A stretch of DNA of 64,000 bases from Candidatus Eiseniibacteriota bacterium (GTDB lineage: Bacteria; Eisenbacteria; RBG-16-71-46; JABDJR01), in contig CAVYIE010000007.1 in assembly GCA_963768615.1 (NCBI GenBank), positions 1,356,648 through 1,420,647 on the forward strand, read 5' to 3'. Positions within the stretch are counted from its first letter, which is position 1. Every line of letters begins with the position of its first letter. A program made the translations under genes and the position numbers. Below, piece by piece: positions 6,828 through 28,500 of this stretch. The notes below the pieces were generated by a model, which saw only the letters and a list, made by a program, of their open reading frames with translations, was not told the DNA's origin and ran no database searches.

Positions 6828-7901
6828 TCAGATCGACTCCGGCCGCCGGGGAAGGATCCTGAGGGCGCCGGCCGGACCTCCGGTCAGCCGCCCGATCACC
6901 GCCGCCGCGACGCCGGCCGCCTCCAGGGCCCGGGTGAGCGCGTCCGCCGAGGCCTCGGGGACGGCGAGCAGGAGCCCGCCGGAGGTCTGGGCGTCGGCCA
7001 GGATCAGGCGGTCGGCCTCGGCCAGGCCGGAATCGAACACGGCGCGGCCGTCCAGGTAGGCCAGGTTCTTCCGCGAACCGCCCGGGACCACCCGGTCGGC
7101 GATGAGCTCGCGGACCCGGGGCTCGAACAGGACCGGCACTTCCTTCGCCCACACCTCGGCCCCGGTGCCCGAGGCCCGGGCCAGCTCCAGGAGATGGCCG
7201 AGGAGGCCGTAGCCGGTGACGTCGGTGGCGGCGTGCACCCCCGCCTTCCGGGCCGCCTGGGCCGGAGCCCGGTTCAGGGTGGCCATCTGGGCCACCACCG
7301 CCTCGATCTCGTCCTCCGGGAGGCGGTCCCGCTTGATGGCGGTGGTGAGGATTCCCACTCCCAGGGGCTTGGTCAGCACCAGCAGGTCCCCGGCGCGCCC
7401 CCCGGAGTTGAGGAGGATCCGGTCCGGGTGCACCCGGCCGGTGACGGCCAGCCCGAACTTGGGTTCGGGGTCGTCGATGGAGTGGCCGCCCAGGACCGCC
7501 ACCCCGGCCTCGATGCACTTGTCCCCCGCCCCCTGCAGGATGCGGTGGAGGATGCCGGGGTCCAGGGTGTCGATGGGGAAGCCGACGATGTTGAGGGCCA
7601 TGAAGGGCTCGGCCCCCATGGCGTAGACGTCGCTCATGGCGTTGGCCGCGGCCACCGCCCCGAAGGCGTAGGGGTCGTTCACGACGGGGGTGAAGAAGTC
7701 CACGGTCTGGACCAGGGCCAGCTCGGGGCTCACCCGGTACACGCCGGCGTCGTCGGCGGTCTCGTTGCCGAGCAGCACGTTGGGATCGTCGAGTCTGGGA
7801 AGCCCTTCCAGCACCTGGACGAGCGCGCCTTGCGCGATCTTGCAGGCTCAGCCGGCGCCGTGGCTCAGGGAGGTCAGCTTGACCACGTCTTCTCCGCTCA
7901 T
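6828..7901 (-). CDS. selD: Selenide, water dikinase (selenophosphate synthetase); selenoprotein with UGA=Sec at 7850-7848
   Basis: ATG 7901 reads MSGEDVVKLTSLSHGAG-TGA-ACKIAQ in frame with DDAGVY, TVDFFTP, AANAMSDVYAMG, TDVTGYGL, DAQTSGGLL. Confidence 0.96.
7814..7846 (-). promoter_or_regulatory. Putative bacterial SECIS hairpin of selD
   Basis: 3' of the UGA: CCUG..GA..GCGC[AAGGC]GCGC UC..CAGG; apical loop starts 16 nt after the UGA. Confidence 0.55.
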
Positions 7902-20182: not shown

Positions 20183-21939
20183 GCTCGCCCTCCCTTGGCG
20201 GGCAACCGGACGGTGAACCGGGCGCCCCCGGCGGGCCCGTTCCCGGCCCGGACCGTCCCGTCCAGGTCGGAGACCAGGCGGCGCACGATGGAGAGGCCCA
20301 GCCCGGCTCCGGACTTCTTGGTGGTATAGAAGTCGTTGAAGATATCATCCAGGTGTTCGGCGGGGATACCGGGCCCGGTGTCGCTCACCGAGAGCTGGAC
20401 CTGGCTCCCGCCGTCGTCCCCGGCGGCGCGTCCCGTGGCCACGGTCACCGTGCCGCCCGCCTCGCCGAGGCTCTCCACCGCGTTGCGGATCAGGTTCTCC
20501 AGGATCCTGCGGATGGCCACCGGGTCCGCCTGCACCGGCGGCAGTTCCGGATCCGGTTTCATCTCCAGGGTCACCCGTTCCGGTCCCGAGAAGGCGGCCC
20601 GGACCTGGTCCAGGGTGTCGTTCACGTTCCAGGTCACCGGAGCCCCGGTGACCGAGAGCCGGGCGTAGTGATGGGCGAGAAGCTCCAGGTACTCCAGGCT
20701 CTGCTCCACGCTCTCCTGGCGCTCGGCGAACACCCGCGCCAGCCCCTCCGGCTTCTCCCGGGCCACCTGGCGCAGGTGCCGGAAGGTGTTGCGGAGCGGG
20801 GTGAGCCCGTTCCAGATGTCGTGATTGACCTGCCGGGCCATGTCCCCCTGGGTGGCGCGGCGTTCGGCGTCCCGAAGCCGCTCCGCGCTCGCCCGCAACC
20901 GCCGCATCATGTCGGCCAGGAAGCGGCTCAGGGTTCCCACCTCGTCCCGGCGCCGGCTCTCGAACCGGCCGTCGAGGTGGTCCAGGTCCAGGGTCTCGGT
21001 CCGCCGGGAGAGATCGACGATGGGCCGGCTGATGGCGGCCGAGAACCACACGGCCAGGATCAGGGTGCCCAGGGCGGTGGCGGCCAGGGCCCCGGCCAGC
21101 CAGGCGTCCAGGCTCCGGAGCAGGCGGTGGAGCGGCCCCAGGGGATAGCTGATCAGCACCTGGGCCTCGGCCAGGCGGGCCGGCTCGCTGCCCGTGACCA
21201 CGAAGGGGATGGACAGGCTGCGCACCAGGTACCGGTCGCGGGGCAGGACCGTCCGCCAGGAGGCCCCCTTCCCGCTGTCGGGCAGGGCGGCCAGGCGGAC
21301 GGCGAGGGAGTCGTCCGAGGACAGGGCGTCTCCCGGTACCAGGAGCGACACCGCCAGCTCCCGGTCCCGGGCCAGGCCGGAGAGGAAGCTCCGGTCCACC
21401 TGCATTCCGCCCACCACGGAGAAGGTCTCTCCGGCCATGGAGAAGCGCTCCAGGCGGGCCAGGGCGAGGAAGCTGCCCGTGGCCAGCCGGGCCCGGGTGA
21501 GGGCGGTGGAATCGGGCGCCTCGGCCAACCGGCGGGGCAGCCCCGGCTCCCGCCGGTCGTACTCGTTCCGGAAGTGCCCGGAGCTCAGGATCCGCCCCGA
21601 GGAGTCCTGGATCTGGAGCATGGAGAGGCCCATCAGCCCCATGGCGCGTCCGGCGTAGTCGAGCAGGTAGGTCCGCTCGCTGGCAATGCCCGCCACCGCG
21701 GCCAGCCGGAACTGGTTGTCGTCGACGATCCGGGGGACCAGGATGGCCAGCCGGGTGTCCACCGACCGCCCCCGCTCGCCCAGGTTCTCCTGGATCACCT
21801 CGGCCAGGGTTTCCACCCGGCGGTCGTACTGCTCGGACAGGCGGCGGGACATCTCCTGCCGGATACCGAGGGCGAGCAGGGCCAGGGGCACCAGGACCAG
21901 GATGGTGGACGCGGCCAGGATGCGCAGCCGGAGGCTCAA
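20179..21939 (-). CDS. Membrane sensor histidine kinase (2 TM, periplasmic domain, HAMP, HisKA, HATPase)
   Basis: TTG start overlaps the SBP stop; QVNHDIWNGL H-box, NLIRNA, DTGPGI, FYTTK, GLGL. Confidence 0.92.
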
Positions 21940-23492
21940 GGCACCACCTCCTCCGCGTCCGCGGACCACCCCAGCCGGTCCAGGAGGAGGGTGCCGTCCC
22001 CGTCCACCCGCAGCCCGGCCAGGGTCCGGCGCACGGCCGCCTGGGGCCGGGTCCGCACCAGGGGCAGCGCGGCCAGGCCCAGCCGGTACGGGCTCCCGGA
22101 GGTGCATCCTCCGGCCAGGCACCGGAGCCAGGGCGCGTCGGCCACCAGGGCCCGGGCCTCGCGGCAGGGAGGGGCGAAGGCGCGCACCAGGGGCACCACG
22201 TAGGCGATGTCGCTGCCCGAGGCCAGCTGCTCGCGGAACTGCACCCCGGTCAGCGCCTCGGCCCGCGGTCCCCCGCCCTCCCGGCCCAGGGCCTCCAGCG
22301 CGGCGGCGGCGCCGGCACCCCCGCCGGTCTCCTTGGACGCCGAACCCAGGGCCACCACCCGCTCGGCCAGCCGCTCGGCGTCGGTATCCCCCGACGGGTA
22401 GACGACCCGGTTGCTGAGCGGAGCGCTCGGCCACACCGTGCGCGGTGCCGGAGCGGGAGGCGTGGCCGGGCAGGGCGCCCCCCCGGAACCGGCGAAGGAG
22501 AACCCGGCCGCCCCCTGGGCGGCGGAGACGGCCACGTCCCGGGCCAGTTCCTCCCCCAGTTTGCCCGAGGCGGGCGGGGAGCCGGAGCCCGAGGGATCGA
22601 AGGCGGTCCCCCCTTCCCCCGTCCGCACCGGCGAAACCAGCACGTAGAGCCGGTCGAAGGGGAGCTCCCGCATGACGTAGCCGGGAAGGCTGGACGCGTA
22701 GTCCACCGCGCCCCGGTCCCGGAGCAGCATGAGATCCACCTTGGGGGTGAAGACGTCGCGGGGATCGGCCCCGGGGTGGATGCCGACGCGGATGACCGAG
22801 AGCGCCGGCTCCGAGCGTCCGGTGGTCACCGGGAGCAGGGCCAGGTCGTAGCCGGACGCGTCGCCGGGACGGTAGGGCCCGGTGCCCATGGGCCAGGCGG
22901 AATCCTCGCTCGGCTTGGCCACGGCCAGGGCGGGATGGGCGAAGAGGGCGGGACTCTCCCCCAGGGGGGCGGTCAGGGCGACCCGGACCTCACGGTCCCC
23001 GGAAACCGACACCGACTCGGGACGGATCCAGATCCAGGGCAGCGACGCCGATCCGGACGCGTGCATCCCCCGCGTTCGCCGCCAGGCCGCGCTCACCGCC
23101 TGGGGCCAGATGGGGACTCCGTCCCAGAATCGCGCCCCGGCCCGGAGGGTGAAGGTCCAGATCCGCCCGTCCTCCGTGGACCGCCAGCCTTCGGCCAGTC
23201 CGGGAACGACCTCCCCCTCGCAGTCGATGCGGACCAGGGTCTCGTACAGCTGGCGGAAGATCAGCCGTTCGGCGTCGTTGTCGGGAAGGGGGGCATGGCG
23301 GGGGTTCACCGAGGCGTCCAGGGCCAGGGCCACCGGAGCCCCGTGATCGGCGGGACCGGGACCCACGTAACAGGGCGCCGCGGCCGGACCGGGCACCTCC
23401 GGCCGCCCGGCGGGGGGAGCGCATCCCGCGGCCACGGCCATCAGCGCCGCCCAAAGCACGAGTCGTAGCGAGCATCTACCGGCCGGTTTCAT
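21936..23492 (-). CDS. Family 5 (peptide/nickel-type) substrate-binding lipoprotein
   Basis: Lipobox AAGC; LYETLVRID..GEVVPGLAEGW..DGRIWTFTLR..ARFWDG; GTGPY. Confidence 0.82.
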   Translation of the reverse strand: MKPAGRCSLRLVLWAALMAVAAGCAPPAGRPEVPGPAAAPCYVGPGPADHGAPVALALDASVNPRHAPLPDNDAERLIFRQLYETLVRIDCEGEVVPGLAEGWRSTEDGRIWTFTLRAGARFWDGVPIWPQAVSAAWRRTRGMHASGSASLPWIWIRPESVSVSGDREVRVALTAPLGESPALFAHPALAVAKPSEDSAWPMGTGPYRPGDASGYDLALLPVTTGRSEPALSVIRVGIHPGADPRDVFTPKVDLMLLRDRGAVDYASSLPGYVMRELPFDRLYVLVSPVRTGEGGTAFDPSGSGSPPASGKLGEELARDVAVSAAQGAAGFSFAGSGGAPCPATPPAPAPRTVWPSAPLSNRVVYPSGDTDAERLAERVVALGSASKETGGGAGAAAALEALGREGGGPRAEALTGVQFREQLASGSDIAYVVPLVRAFAPPCREARALVADAPWLRCLAGGCTSGSPYRLGLAALPLVRTRPQAAVRRTLAGLRVDGDGTLLLDRLGWSADAEEVVP

Positions 23493-23704
23493 TCCAGGGC
23501 TCCAGGGATGGACCGCGCGGGGTTGCGCGGCCGGGGGAAGAATCCCGATCAGGAACCGAAGTCTAGCAGGACCCGCCGGCACCGGTCTTCACGGCGAAGG
23601 CCGCCGCCTTTCCCCGCCCGCCCGCGCGGGTTAGAGTCGGAAGCGGGCCGGGACGCGTGCGCCCGCCGTCTCCGGCCGCGCACCCGCGGGCGAGGCGAGG
23701 CTCC

Positions 23705-24193
23705 ATGAAGACCCACACCGGGGCCGCCCGGGCCTGGTTGATCTGGGACGGCGGCTGAGGATTCTGCTGCCGGGCGGTGACCTGGGCCCGGCGGCGCGGC
23801 GCGGAGCGCCGCTTCCGCATCGTCTCCTACCAGGACGCGCCCTCCCCCCCCATGACCCCCGCCCTGAGGGAACGGGCCCGGCGCGCGGTGCAGGTGCTGA
23901 CCCCCGAGGGACGCCGGCTGGAGGCCGGGCGCGCCTCGCTCTACGTGCTGGCCCGGGTGGGCTACCCGGGCGCGGCCCGGGTGCTCTCCCTGCCCCCGTT
24001 CTCATGGGCGGTGGAGCTGGGCTACCGCGGCGTGGCCGCCAACCGCCGGTTCCTGGAGCGCTGGCTCTCCCGCGATCCACGGCGCTGCCGGGCCGAGGAC
24101 CGGAACCGGGTCGGCGTCCCGGACGCCGACCCACCCTCCCCTGCATCCGGCGGAGGAGGCGGTCACTCCTCCAGCATTCGCAGCCAGCGGTAG
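23705..24193 (+). CDS. DCC/DUF393-family thiol-disulfide oxidoreductase, predicted selenoprotein (UGA=Sec at 23756-23758)
   Basis: ATG 23705: MKTHTGAARAWLIWDGG-TGA-GFCCRAV in frame with ORF 23777..24193 (GYRGVAANR); UGA occupies the first Cys of DGxCxxC. Confidence 0.85.
23766..23795 (+). promoter_or_regulatory. Putative bacterial SECIS hairpin of the DCC gene
   Basis: 10-bp stem GCUGCCGGGC/GCCCGGCGGC, loop GGUGACCUGG starting 17 nt after the UGA. Confidence 0.65.
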
Positions 24194-25476
24194 ATCGACG
24201 CCCGGGCGTAGCCGGTGTGACGGACCCAGGCCTCGATGTCCCGTCCCAGGAGCGCGTGCACCTCGCGCAGGTAGGCGTCCTCGACCCGGGACAGGACCGC
24301 GCGCCACGGCAGGCGGGCCAGCTCGGCGATGGCGGGAAGCTCCGGCCGCTCACCGGATCCGGACGTGAGGGCGCCGGCGCCGTGGATCACCGCCCGCCTC
24401 AGGTCGTGGAAGTTCTCCGGCCAACCGCACGCGGCCAGCTCCGGCAGGTCGGCGGGGCGGAGCGCCCCCAGGCCGTGCTCCCCGGGACGGCCTTCCAGCC
24501 GGGCCAGGCGGGCGGCGTGGAACTCCAGGTCCTCCGCCTGCTCGCGGAGCGGGGGAACCTCCACCGTCCACGGTTTCCAGAAGGCGGCCAGCGGGGGCGA
24601 CCAGTCCCGGTCCCCGCCGCCGCCGGTGCGGCGCGAGCAGATGACCCGGGCGCTCAACCGGCGCGTCCGGGCGCTGCCCACCCGCCGGTAGCCACCCGAG
24701 GCCAGGGCCAGGCGCAGTCGCTCCAGCCGGTCCTCGGGAAGATCCTCGAGCCCCTGCACGAACACCGTGCCCCGGGCCGCCGCGCCCAGGGCGCCGGGAA
24801 GGCCGTTCCCCCGCCCCTCCACGCCGTAGAACTCCCGCTCGAACTCGTCGGCGTCCCGCGAGCGTGCGCTCACGGGAATGAACGGCCCCGAGGCGACCCG
24901 GGACCGGGCATGGATCCAGCGGGCGGCGGTGAGCTTCCCGCAGCCCAACTCCCCGGTCAGGAGGAGGGGCTGGAGCCCCTCCTCGTAGGGGCGGAGAAGC
25001 TCACGCAGGGCTCGCGCCGCCTCGCACCCGTTCCAGGGAAAGTCCTCCGCCTCGGGAACCGCGTCCAGCAGGTTCCGGTAGTGGCCCAGCTCGTCGGTGA
25101 GCAGGCTGTGCTCGATGGCCTGGCCCACCTCGCGCCGGAAGGTGCCCGGATCCAGACGCTCGTCCTTGTTGATATAGGGAATCCCCTCCACCAGGGCCCG
25201 GCTGGTGGTATTGGTTCCGGCATAGATGGTGAGGAGGATCACCGGAAAGCGGTGCCCCTCCTTCCGGAGCCTCTGGTGCACGGTGAACCCGTCCTCGTCC
25301 AGGCCGAGGGCCAGGTCCAGGAGGAGGAGGTCCGGGGTTCGCGCTTCCAGGGCCACGAACAGCGCTTCCGGTGCGGCGAAGGTCTGGATCTCGAAATCCT
25401 TGCCCAGGAGGTGGACCGCCTCCCGGCGGAACCCCTCCTCGTCGTCCAGCAGCATGACCAACGGCCTCGGAATCAT
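24163..25476 (-). CDS. Atypical NtrC-like response regulator (intact REC, degenerate AAA+, HTH)
   Basis: LLDDE, LLLDL, T and K of REC present; Walker A GELGCGK; no GAFTGA; Walker B reads VFVQG; C-terminal ARASIYRW HTH. Confidence 0.82.
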   Translation of the reverse strand: MIPRPLVMLLDDEEGFRREAVHLLGKDFEIQTFAAPEALFVALEARTPDLLLLDLALGLDEDGFTVHQRLRKEGHRFPVILLTIYAGTNTTSRALVEGIPYINKDERLDPGTFRREVGQAIEHSLLTDELGHYRNLLDAVPEAEDFPWNGCEAARALRELLRPYEEGLQPLLLTGELGCGKLTAARWIHARSRVASGPFIPVSARSRDADEFEREFYGVEGRGNGLPGALGAAARGTVFVQGLEDLPEDRLERLRLALASGGYRRVGSARTRRLSARVICSRRTGGGGDRDWSPPLAAFWKPWTVEVPPLREQAEDLEFHAARLARLEGRPGEHGLGALRPADLPELAACGWPENFHDLRRAVIHGAGALTSGSGERPELPAIAELARLPWRAVLSRVEDAYLREVHALLGRDIEAWVRHTGYARASIYRWLRMLEE

Positions 25477-25509
25477 GTTGATCCATCCTCCCCGGGACCG
25501 GAGTCCCGT

Positions 25510-28500
25510 TCAGACGTTGTCGAACCGGGGCACCCGCACCTCGGCCCGGACCCCCCCGCCGGGGGCGTCCGTGATCCGTGCCTTCCCGCCGTAGGCGGCC
25601 AGGATCTGGTTCAGGCGCGTGAGCCCGGAGCGGGAGCCCGGGCGCCCGTCGCGGGCCCACTCCGCCTCCACCGAGGCCCCGTCGTCCCACACCCCCAGCA
25701 CCGCGACCTTCGGCCCCTGGGCGGCCACCGTCACCCGGATGGTCCCCGGAACCGGGACCTTCTTCCCGGCGTTGGCCAGGAACTCGTCCAGGCAGGCGAA
25801 GGCGTCGGCCGCGCTCAGGGGAAACCGCCGGCCCAGGTCGGAGTCCTCGATCTCGCAGACCGGTACCGGGCCGGTCCCGCCGTGGTGGGTACGGAAGCGC
25901 ACCACCCGCTCCAGCACCTCCGCCGGGGCGCAGCTGAACCGCTCGACCAGCGGCCCCTGGATGAGGGTCAGCGAGGTCCGGAGCGCGCTCCCCGCTTCCA
26001 GGAGGCGCTCCGGGTCCGCGATCTCCTCCCCGCAGACGCGCTCCAGCTCCCGGATAGCCCGGTCGGCCGTCCGGGCCCCCTCCAGGCCCAGTTCCCAGGC
26101 CACCTCGACCGCGCGCCGGAGGCGGGCCAGCACCTCGGGGGGCAGGTACTCCCGGAAGGGAGGATCGGCGGGAACCGCCGCCTCTCCGCCTCCGTTCCGG
26201 GCCCCGGCCCGGACCGCCCGGGCCGCCCGGGAGACCCCGGCCAGGGCCAGCCGCCAGTGGGCATGGGACGAGAAGCCCACCACCGAGAGGAGCTCCCTCC
26301 ACATGCGCTCCTCGTCCCGGACCCGCCGCCGCCTCCGGATCCCCGCCCCCAGGAGGATCAACCCGGCCGCCGCGGCCAGCCCGGCCGCGGCCCGGGCCCC
26401 CGGCTCGCGGGCCGCCGCCCGCGGGATCTCGCTCCAGGTGGGAAGCCGCCAGCGCGCCCAGGACCCGATCGCCGCCGCTTTACCCCGCCAGCCCGGGGGG
26501 CGGCCCGGCGTCACCGTGACCCTGTCGCCGGGCAGGCCCGGCGGGGCCTCGGCGGGCGGACCGAAGCCCTGGACCGAGAGCCGCTCGCCCGCGGCGACCA
26601 GGAAGGGGGCCGTCCCGCCCCGATGGGTGGAGGTGCGGAGTACGCTCCAGGGCCGGGGACCGGCGCCGGTGAGCCGCGCCCCGATCCCGCCCGAGTTGGG
26701 TCCGGGGCGGCGGAGCTGGACCCGGCGCACCGGCCCGGTGCCGGGCAGGGGAACCACCTGGGGGCCATCCTCCCGGGACAGCACCGCCTCCACCGTCCCG
26801 TCGCCGTCCAGGTCGGCGAGGAAGACCATCTCCGCGCCGGCCAGGGAATCCGGACGATCGGTGAGGGTCAGCCGGCCCGGCCGCACGCCCGGCTCCTCCG
26901 GCGCCCTCCGCACGGGATCGAAGTCGTAGGCGACCAGGCCGTCCATCTCCTCCAGGGTCACCAGCTCGGGGCCCCCGGCGCCGTTCACGTCGGCCATGAC
27001 CGCGTCCCCGGTGACCTGGCCCCCCTCCATCCCCCAGGCCGTGGTCACGTCCTCGAAGCGGAAGCCGCCCCGGTTCAGGAGCATGAAGTTGTTGCCGCTC
27101 ACTTCGGGCCGGGCCGAGATGTTCACCACCGGCGCGTAGAGATCCAGACGGCCGTCGCCGTCCAGGTCGGCCACCACCAGCGTGCGCTGGAATCCCTCGT
27201 CCATGACCGCGACCTGGACGCGCCTGCCGAACCGGCCCGGCCCCAGACCGGGGAACGCCGCCAGCCCGTACACCCCGGTCAGGCAGGCCAGATCCAGGAC
27301 CCCGTCCCCATCCAGGTCGGCGAGGCGGATGTGGTAGATCCCGTGCAGGTTCGGATAGCCCGAGCCCTCCACCGGCCGGGCGGCGGCGAACCCCGCCTTC
27401 CCCCGCCCCTCCAACCGCTGAAGCCGCGGGTGCGCGTTGTCCCCCATGAGGTGATAGCCCAGGTAGAGGTCCAGATCCCCGTCCCCGTCGTCGTCGGCGA
27501 GCTCCAGGGCGGTGAGGATCGCCCCCAGCTCCGGCACGGGAACGCGGAGGGTGTCGCCCCGGAACCCGCCCCGGCGGTTCCAGAGCAGATGCAGCGTCTC
27601 CCCGTCCGATTCCGCGGCCACCAGGTCCAGGTCGCCGTCCCCGTCCAGGTCCCCGGCGACCATGATATCCAGGGCCTCCGGCCGGGCCAGGGCGTCCTTC
27701 CGCGGGGAACGGCGGTACCCTCCGGTCGCGGGATCGAAGACCCAGAGTTTCTCTCCGTGCTTCCAGGGGGTGACCACTTCGGGCACCCCGTCCCCGTCCA
27801 GGTCCGCGGGAAGGAAGCGGCCCTCGGTCACCTTGGGGCGGCGGCCGCGGGGGGGAGGAACGTGCCGGTCGCGGGCCCGTCCGTAGCTGAGGCGCCCGAG
27901 CCAGACCTCCTGCTGGTGGGGCAGGTCCATGCTGATCTCCACGCCGACGAAACGGCCCGGCTCCTCGGCGGCATCGTAGCCCTTGAGGCGGCCGAACTCC
28001 TGCACGTCGGCGATGGAGGTCCAGGCCTGCTGGTAGCGCCCCGGCGGACGGAAGAAGTCGTCCCCGTAGTCGTAGATGGAGTGGGAGGCGGCCAGCTGGA
28101 ACACGCGGCTCCGGTCGTCGATGAGGCTGAGAACGACCCGGTCCGCGGTCTTCATGTTGGCCACGTACCAGTCCCATCGCCAGAACTCCGCCTCCTCCCG
28201 GGAGAGGGGGGGGATTCCCAGGTCCGAGAACCTCAGGATGAAGGCTGGCGTTCGAGCCGGTGCGGCCGGAGGGGGCGTCGGCCCGGAAAACCCACATGGG
28301 ACGAAGTCCGGCATGACCCAGGCCGACCGACCCGTGCGCCCCCCCCGCCGGCGGCAGCGCCGTCCATTCGGCGCCGGAACGGGGGATGATCTGGTGGATC
28401 GGCTGCGCCGCGGCCGTTCCCACGGACAGCGCCAGCGCCGCCGCCGCGGCCAGGAGCCGGGCGGGTAACGCGATGGGGCGGCGGTGATTCCGGAGCGGCT

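Follow-up and report, generated by a model that had tools for sequence, protein, structure and literature searches.

The window analysed here, a 64,000-nt stretch of contig CAVYIE010000007.1 (GCA_963768615.1, positions 1,356,648 to 1,420,647, forward strand) of a Candidatus Eiseniibacteriota bacterium, contains a gene for a DCC1-like protein (the DCC gene) in which the first cysteine (Cys) of the redox motif is written as UGA, making it a candidate selenoprotein gene. In the list of open reading frames (ORFs) made with translation table 11, the gene was represented by an ORF of 138 aa running from GTG 23777 to 24193 on the forward strand, from which the whole redox motif is missing. An earlier note, made from the sequence alone, had pointed to an ATG at 23705 with a Shine-Dalgarno sequence and in the same frame, and this was borne out: GAGG stands twice upstream of the ATG (23692-23695 and 23697-23700), the ATG is in frame with the 138-aa ORF, and translation of 23705-24193 with TGA read as selenocysteine (Sec, U) yielded 162 aa with U at position 18. 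The read-through protein thus translated begins MKTHTGAARAWLIWDGG-U-GFCCRAVTWARRRG, the motif stretch being MKTHTGAARAWLIWDGG-U-GFCC. Whether the gene starts at ATG 23705 or at the in-frame GTG 23657 is uncertain.

The read-through protein matched the Pfam family DCC1-like (PF04134/DUF393) with an E value of 1.4e-13 and 52.5 bits (cut-off, 27.8), residues 13-119 corresponding to profile positions 2-112 of 113, on both sides of the TGA. In an alignment of 55 sequences of the subfamily (the window protein and 54 relatives), D15, G16, C18 (the column of U) and C21 were invariant. The motif of the gene reads D15-G16-G17-U18-G19-F20-C21, and because of this invariance the UGA at 23756-23758 can be placed exactly on the first Cys of the motif, where the earlier note had put it. 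No family of NCBIfam release 20.0 was found for the read-through protein at E <= 0.01.

The AlphaFold2 model made from the 55-sequence alignment (predicted local distance difference test [pLDDT], 81; predicted template modeling score [pTM], 0.70) has the element order strand 10-14, helix 19-30, strand 37-41, helix 52-60, strands 63-65 and 71-73, and further helices, with U18 between strand 10-14 and helix 19-30, just before helix 1, which is where thioredoxin folds have the CxxC motif. A Foldseek comparison of the model with the PDB gave no match at E <= 0.001, and a sequence search of the PDB found no solved relative. The best matches of VIA-align (Z <= 5.5) were too weak to name a closest structure; its top rows were all of the glutathione S-transferase (GST) type, and glutaredoxin-like proteins came lower, with a Z of 3.6. 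To our knowledge, biochemical work on the DCC family is scant. DCC1 of Arabidopsis is described as a functional thioredoxin that affects mitochondrial complex I and reactive oxygen species (PMC6603150).

When 61 related genomes were searched with the read-through protein, 17 had a match. All three congeneric species (G001, G002 and G003; the genome of the window is G000) encode W-D-G-G-U-G-F-C-C with the TGA in the same column, at 58-66% identity, and the open frames in the four species run to 129-152 codons. Since G001, G002 and G003 keep the genes for an SBP_bac_5 solute-binding protein and a sigma-54-type response regulator as neighbours of the DCC gene, they are regarded as positional orthologues. 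The codons 5' of the TGA vary synonymously between the species (TTG/CTC for Leu, GGC/GGG for Gly and GCC/GCT for Ala), and the peptide (A/P)WL(I/F)WDGG is kept despite these differences, which indicates that the stretch upstream of the TGA is translated. A second TGA of G002 and a TGA of G054 are both terminal stops; G054, an unpublished genome, is counted only in the 61-genome search and in the 206-genome search given below, and supports no claim. The stored gene calls of G000 (P0002) and G002 (P0004, NCBI/ENA) begin at a GTG after the TGA, as expected from the earlier suggestion that annotation pipelines would shorten the gene. With regard to the further suggestion that reads be inspected for TGC or TGT, two public runs were found to hold small shares of the window (0.09 and 0.04 of its words), and a 151-nt contig of a public DNA run, whose independence from the assembly is uncertain, spans 23629-23779 and agrees with the assembly at the TGA, differing from it only at 23686.

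When PF04134 was searched for in 206 genomes of the phylum, 127 had a match, and a TGA inside the match was found only in the four genomes of the genus; one further match has a TAG inside. The Sec form is thus limited, as sampled, to one genus of its phylum, and G000 has one DCC gene only. G006, of the same family and another genus, has TGC at the column of U (WDGTCGFCC). The extra Cys of UGFCC, C22, which the earlier note had called unusual, is real and is a trait of the clade; it is not special to the Sec form, since CGFCC also occurs in the Cys forms of G006 and P0003.

Outside the phylum, Sec forms were sought with a DNA pattern for W-D-G-x-U-x-x-C...P-P-M-T-P in species genomes and with a slightly looser one in metagenomes. 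The stricter pattern found a U-x-x-C DCC protein in two species genomes of other phyla, both metagenome-assembled genomes (MAGs), one from Chloroflexia (L058, WLIWDGGUTFCRN...) and one from Planctomycetaceae (L059, WMLWDGDUGFCGR...); selA is present in both, as it is in G001, G002 and G003. The looser pattern returned 35 metagenome stretches, 28 of which translate to a DCC protein with U at the motif column; the other seven (L066, L070, L075, L079, L091, L092 and L093) proved on translation to be chance matches and were rejected. Homologues with TGA at the Cys column, which the earlier note had advised looking for, were thus found in three of three congeneric species, two MAGs and 28 of the 35 metagenome hits. 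Counted from just before the motif, 25 of the 28 metagenome sequences have an open frame of 110-190 codons, and in two (L074 and L097) the frame is cut by the end of the contig. In L084 (127-180, +), a TAG nine codons past the U takes the place of the conserved codon for Trp, which may reflect a decaying copy or a read error. Because both patterns required TGA, these searches show that Sec forms are widespread but give no measure of their frequency. The Cys form prevailed among predicted proteins, 106 of the 111 hits considered being of full length with CxxC.

The genome of the window was found to have the machinery for Sec, selA, selB and selC being the genes that the earlier note had named for checking: selA was recognised with 480.6 bits, the winged-helix domain of SelB with 68.6 bits and tRNA-Sec with 69.6 bits, ARAGORN giving the anticodon tca. 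The selD gene, which the earlier note had reported from the window, is indeed there and is itself Sec-containing, with its TGA (7848-7850) at the canonical Sec position, SHGAG-U-ACK (…LSHGAG-U-ACKIAQ…). Gene callers will truncate or split selD at this TGA, as with the DCC gene. Other candidates were looked for in a genome-wide scan for TGA flanked by coding sequence with a high GC content at third codon positions, a crude scan that does not amount to a complete selenoproteome. It gave 243 raw candidates, mostly adjacent genes in the same frame, and six were picked for tests against Pfam and NCBIfam; the DCC gene was missed by the scan because its upstream part has only 17 codons. In each of the six the domain match spans the TGA, and the list is probably incomplete. 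Curated cut-offs were reached by the thioredoxin-like, the AhpC/TSA-like and the TUGYCR candidates and, with the PMSR domain of MsrA, by four in all (scores in the table below). G000 thus clearly appears, on this genomic evidence, to decode UGA as Sec, and to do so in thiol oxidoreductases. selA is also present in G006, the genome with the Cys-form DCC gene, and likewise in four further genomes from its family and order; its presence in G006 means that the difference between Cys and Sec is specific to the gene.

Within the coding region after the UGA lies a SECIS-like hairpin (selenocysteine insertion sequence, SECIS) with the 5' arm GCUGCCGGGC (23766-23775), the loop GGUGACCUGG (23776-23785) and the 3' arm GCCCGGCGGC (23786-23795). 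The earlier note had the hairpin begin 17 nt downstream of the UGA; this distance holds for the start of the loop, which opens with GGU, and not for the hairpin, since its stem starts 7 nt after the UGA. The consensus for bacterial SECIS (bSECIS) elements, as given in PMC13188914, calls for an apical loop of 3-9 nt that starts 16-37 nt after the UGA and has a G in its first two positions, a stem of 4-16 bp and a minimum free energy (MFE) of <= -7.5 kcal/mol, and according to the same source some real bSECIS elements fall outside the consensus model. The hairpin of G000 fits this geometry, as had been claimed for it, in spacing (17 nt), in the GG at the start of the loop, in its 10-bp stem and in its energy (-23.5 kcal/mol for 45 nt); it departs from it in the length of the loop. 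The loop is shorter in G001, G002, G003 and L080, where one more C-G pair narrows it to 8 nt, with a GU start. The hairpins of the other selenoprotein genes of G000 have the loops GUC, GGU, AGUUC, GGA, AAG or GUG, 16-33 nt after the UGA, so that the DCC hairpin has the usual position and a larger loop than these. A 60-nt segment was more stable than its dinucleotide shuffles (z = -2.87; 0 of 200 shuffles as stable). In the five sequences of the window clade (G000, G001, G002, G003 and L080), the helix was 90% paired, compared with 28-58% for slid controls, and it is the minimum-energy fold in G000, G001 and G002. No hairpin was found at the corresponding place in the G006 homologue with TGC. 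A second hairpin about 44 nt after the UGA (GCGGCGC-GGA-GCGCCGC) was considered as a SECIS element and rejected, since its spacing exceeds 37 nt and it is not conserved across the clade.

Several observations weigh against reading the DCC gene as a selenoprotein gene with this hairpin as its SECIS element. The loop of 10 nt in G000 is one above the consensus range. Compared with synonymous recodings that follow the genome's own codon usage, the G000 segment was not unusually stable (z = +0.24; 57% of them were as stable or more so), z ranged from -1.12 to +1.05 over the five sequences of the clade, and in the same MFE test over all clades z ranged from -1.87 to +1.73 with none significant. The DNA being GC rich and the recodings equally stable, hairpin stability alone does not go beyond chance and was dropped as support. 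The five sequences of the window clade contain no compensatory change in the helix, and two pairs of the lower stem are broken by synonymous changes in two to three of them. In G003 the helix is not the minimum-energy fold, and L080 retains only a 5-bp remnant; compared with shuffles, the z scores of these two were +0.18 and +0.13, respectively. Rfam, with E <= 10 as the threshold, had no SECIS family for 23650-23900, only two chance snoRNA-like matches. The G006 gene, which was the one close Cys form available as DNA, lies outside the syntenic locus and is therefore a homologue, not a proven orthologue. Finally, the one contig of an RNA library covers only 23995-24227 and gives neither strand nor transcription. 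The hairpin of the window clade is thus weaker than the earlier note had implied, in covariation, in the recoding signal and in the folds of G003 and L080, and its role as a SECIS element is no more than plausible.

A different helix was found in the main soil clade of Sec forms (22 distinct sequences), in which columns 22-29 pair with columns 33-40 over 8 bp around a GGU triloop 26 nt after the UGA. In the window clade, columns 11-20 pair with columns 31-40 around a GU-started loop of 8-10 nt. The soil-clade helix was 92.6% paired (slid controls, 21-43%) with compensatory changes at three pairs, and its arms use codons that are rare elsewhere in the same genes, Ala being GCT at 16 of 19 loci (6% elsewhere) and Arg being CGA at 18 of 18 (9% elsewhere). 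These patterns point to selection on the RNA of the soil-clade helix, and it was for this helix only that such evolutionary support was found. When the helix of either clade was fitted to the other, the fit was poor (55% and 58% paired), and the helices of both clades end on the same invariant C at column 40.

The Cys and Sec forms were placed in a quick maximum-likelihood tree built on only 112 columns of 27 Sec and 107 Cys domains (134 sequences). Left out of it were the window's own P0001, P0002 and P0004 as truncated sequences, duplicates, hits that lacked the motif or had fewer than 100 residues, and Sec rows of fewer than 100 residues. The Sec sequences fell into an all-Sec group of 17, the window clade (SH-like approximate likelihood ratio test [SH-aLRT] support, 99), which unites five Sec sequences with two Cys sequences (G006 and P0003), a pair (L058 and L095) beside a Cys clade, and three singletons. 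The Sec label needs seven changes on this tree, at least three of which are forced by well-supported branches. Cys and Sec have evidently been switched more than once, if this tree is taken as a guide. We see even chances that the DCC subfamily with PSPPMTP is a hot spot of repeated, independent switching between Cys and Sec, in which each lineage would have made a SECIS element from the same dozen codons.

Taken with the family assignment, the position of the UGA and the genomic setting, these data make it highly probable that the product of the DCC gene is a DCC1-like thiol-disulfide oxidoreductase of the thioredoxin fold, with Sec instead of Cys as the attacking residue of its active site (U18-G-F-C21). 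The UGA at 23756-23758 would then be decoded as Sec rather than ending the protein, the hairpin downstream in the mRNA, with its loop 17 nt after the UGA, recruiting SelB with Sec-tRNA(Sec). In the protein, the selenolate would attack a disulfide or an oxidised substrate and the resulting selenenylsulfide would be resolved by C21, with a relay to C22 possible in the window clade; this chemistry is modelled on the DCC family and on known UxxC selenoproteins.

Three other explanations were weighed. If the residue inserted at the UGA were Cys or Trp, through a near-cognate tRNA or through Cys-tRNA(Sec), the gene would be read through without being a selenoprotein gene; the SECIS evidence in the window clade, which is only moderate, leaves some room for this, but G000 has the full Sec machinery and no fewer than three further genes with an internal TGA that reach the curated cut-off of a redox or selenoprotein family, TGA serves as an ordinary stop throughout the genome, at many gene ends, and this particular TGA coincides exactly with a redox Cys, as is usual for Sec/Cys pairs. 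We consider such read-through very unlikely. Slightly less credit still is due to the view that the UGA is a genuine stop, with a 17-residue peptide before it and a separate DCC-like protein of 138 aa from GTG 23777. That is the standing annotation (P0002 and P0004), the GTG exists, and the hairpin in the window clade is statistically not compelling; yet the 138-aa product would lack all four invariant residues (D15, G16, C18 and C21), the peptide 5' of the TGA has been kept while its codons changed synonymously, and it fits the Pfam model, and the same layout recurs in more than 30 loci of several phyla, never with TAA or TAG at the column. This last point, that the column has TGA only, carries little weight, because the pattern searches required TGA.

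Least probable of all, in our judgement, is a pseudogene in which a recent nonsense mutation turned the Cys codon (TGC/TGT) into TGA, or else a sequencing error. A single base change leads from TGC to TGA, and the metagenome relative L084 does have an extra TAG, but the TGA is shared by four congeneric species that have diverged to 58-66% protein identity with intact frames, it is present in the two MAGs and the 28 metagenome loci as well, the contig of the public run (of uncertain independence) keeps it, and G000 has no other DCC gene. The replacement of the attacking Cys by Sec is therefore the reading that we retain.

The coordinates of the features are collected in the table. The DCC gene stands alone between two genes of the minus strand, and these neighbours gave no hint of its function. 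Its 3' end overlaps that of the convergent response regulator gene by 31 nt (24163-24193), which leaves no room between the two for terminators of their own. Downstream of the TAGAGT hexamer, the start regions of the four species differ. An ATG 6 nt after TAGAGT opens an upstream ORF of 16 codons in G001 and G003, the TGA of which overlaps the start of the DCC gene (ATGA); the corresponding ATG of G002 is in frame with the DCC gene and possibly a leaderless start, and the window has neither of these arrangements. An ORF of 1461 aa (24004-28389, +), antisense to the genes of the response regulator and of an FG-GAP/HATPase protein on the minus strand, is a spurious ORF of high-GC DNA, not a gene. 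In G002, the orthologue of the response regulator gene (L012, about 214-1508) was recovered by tblastn in two pieces that abut at 876, which hints at either a frameshift or a faulty assembly of G002.

Table. Features of the DCC locus, the selD gene of the window and further candidate selenoprotein genes of G000 (positions in the window unless a contig is given)
Feature	Position	Strand	Basis or remark
selD (selenophosphate synthetase), itself with Sec	6948-7880	-	TIGR00476, 383.7 bits; 1 TGA inside
SBP_bac_5 solute-binding protein gene	21936-23582	-	Neighbour of the DCC gene
TAGAGT hexamer, possible -10 promoter element	23632-23637	+	Conserved upstream in G001, G002, G003
Shine-Dalgarno-like GAGGCGAGG	23692-23700	+	5' of ATG 23705; by eye
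Full-length putative Sec-DCC1-like gene	23705-24193	+	TGA=U translation, Pfam match, orthologues G001-G003
In-frame UGA, putative Sec (U18)	23756-23758	+	First Cys of D-G-x-C-x-x-C
C21 and C22 codons	23765-23770	+	C21, resolving Cys of UxxC, family-invariant; C22, extra Cys, clade-specific
SECIS-like hairpin, in coding region	23766-23795	+	10-bp stem, 10-nt loop
Short ORF reported by gene caller, GTG start, 138 aa	23777-24193	+	Identical to stored gene call P0002
Sigma-54-type response regulator gene	24163-25476	-	Neighbour; 3' end overlaps the DCC gene
Six candidate genes (L099-L104), G000 outside the window	C2:272821-274023; C2:643850-644767; C2:566791-567405; C5:321145-322656; C6:5305-6399; C7:1780293-1780823	+; +; -; +; -; -	Products in the rows below, in no set order
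Thioredoxin-like WUGSC protein			PF13899, PF00085; above cut-off
AhpC/TSA-like protein			PF00578; above cut-off
TUGYCR thioredoxin-fold (seleno)protein			NF053656, 222.7 bits; above cut-off (100)
MsrA			PF01625 (PMSR) above cut-off; selenoprotein-MsrA helical domain E 8.4e-05, 22.7 bits, below 23.7
UshA-like/multihaem (seleno)protein			NF041198, 241.5 bits; below cut-off (275)
DG zinc-ribbon (seleno)protein			NF049953, 71.4 bits; below cut-off (130)

Compared with the Cys-type DCC1-like/DUF393 proteins (CGFCRR...PSPPMTP; P0003-P0114), the window protein shares the domain, the D-G-x-C-x-x-C motif, PPM and other columns, with up to 70% identity, and its predicted fold appears to be thioredoxin-like; it differs in that its first redox Cys is UGA followed by a hairpin, whereas the Cys form of G006 has TGC and no such hairpin. 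The UxxC selenoproteins of the thioredoxin fold catalogued in Table 1 of PMC13188914 comprise Sec forms of thioredoxin, glutaredoxin, DsbA-like, Prx-like thiol:disulfide oxidoreductase, redoxin and TlpA-like proteins. Like the window protein as interpreted here, they have the Sec at the N-terminal position of UxxC at the start of helix 1 of a thioredoxin-like fold, are outnumbered by Cys homologues and have the SECIS element in the coding region right after the UGA, whereas the window gene belongs to another domain family (PF04134). That review, of May 2026, which describes itself as the most comprehensive inventory, covers 119 selenoprotein families or subfamilies with Pfam and NCBIfam identifiers, and its Table 1 has no entry for DCC1-like, DUF393 or PF04134; together with the lack of an NCBIfam match, this agrees with the earlier remark that the protein lies outside the classic bacterial selenoprotein families. 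The terms DCC, DUF393 and thiol-disulfide are likewise absent from the main text of the deep-Sep paper (PMC12013277), and a full-text search of the literature, with subscription papers and the supplements of surveys, where the family could stand under another name, outside its scope, found no paper that ties DCC, DUF393, PF04134 or YuxK to selenoproteins. Sec-DCC is, on the comparative evidence, very probably a real member of the selenoprotein families that is absent from the catalogue in Table 1 of PMC13188914, and to this the window adds a genus-restricted switch with a hairpin register unlike that of the main soil clade.

As such, Sec-DCC would add to the prokaryotic selenoproteome a widespread family, found in soil and sediment metagenomes and in at least three phyla. 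Automatic annotation systematically cuts the gene to a protein that lacks the active site, and the annotation of this gene and its relatives would be corrected. The Sec/Cys pair marks residue 18 as the probable catalytic nucleophile and supports a redox function. G000 itself appears to be rich in Sec, with SelD, the DCC protein, three further genes above cut-offs and three weaker candidates. Two hairpin solutions within one subfamily would make a useful case for the origin of SECIS elements inside coding sequence. If the reading of the subfamily as a hot spot is true, the genus of the window would represent a recent, genus-level switch, the subfamily would offer a natural series on how a coding sequence acquires a SelB-binding element, and it would show what Sec gives to a thiol oxidoreductase in bacteria of oxic soils and sediments.

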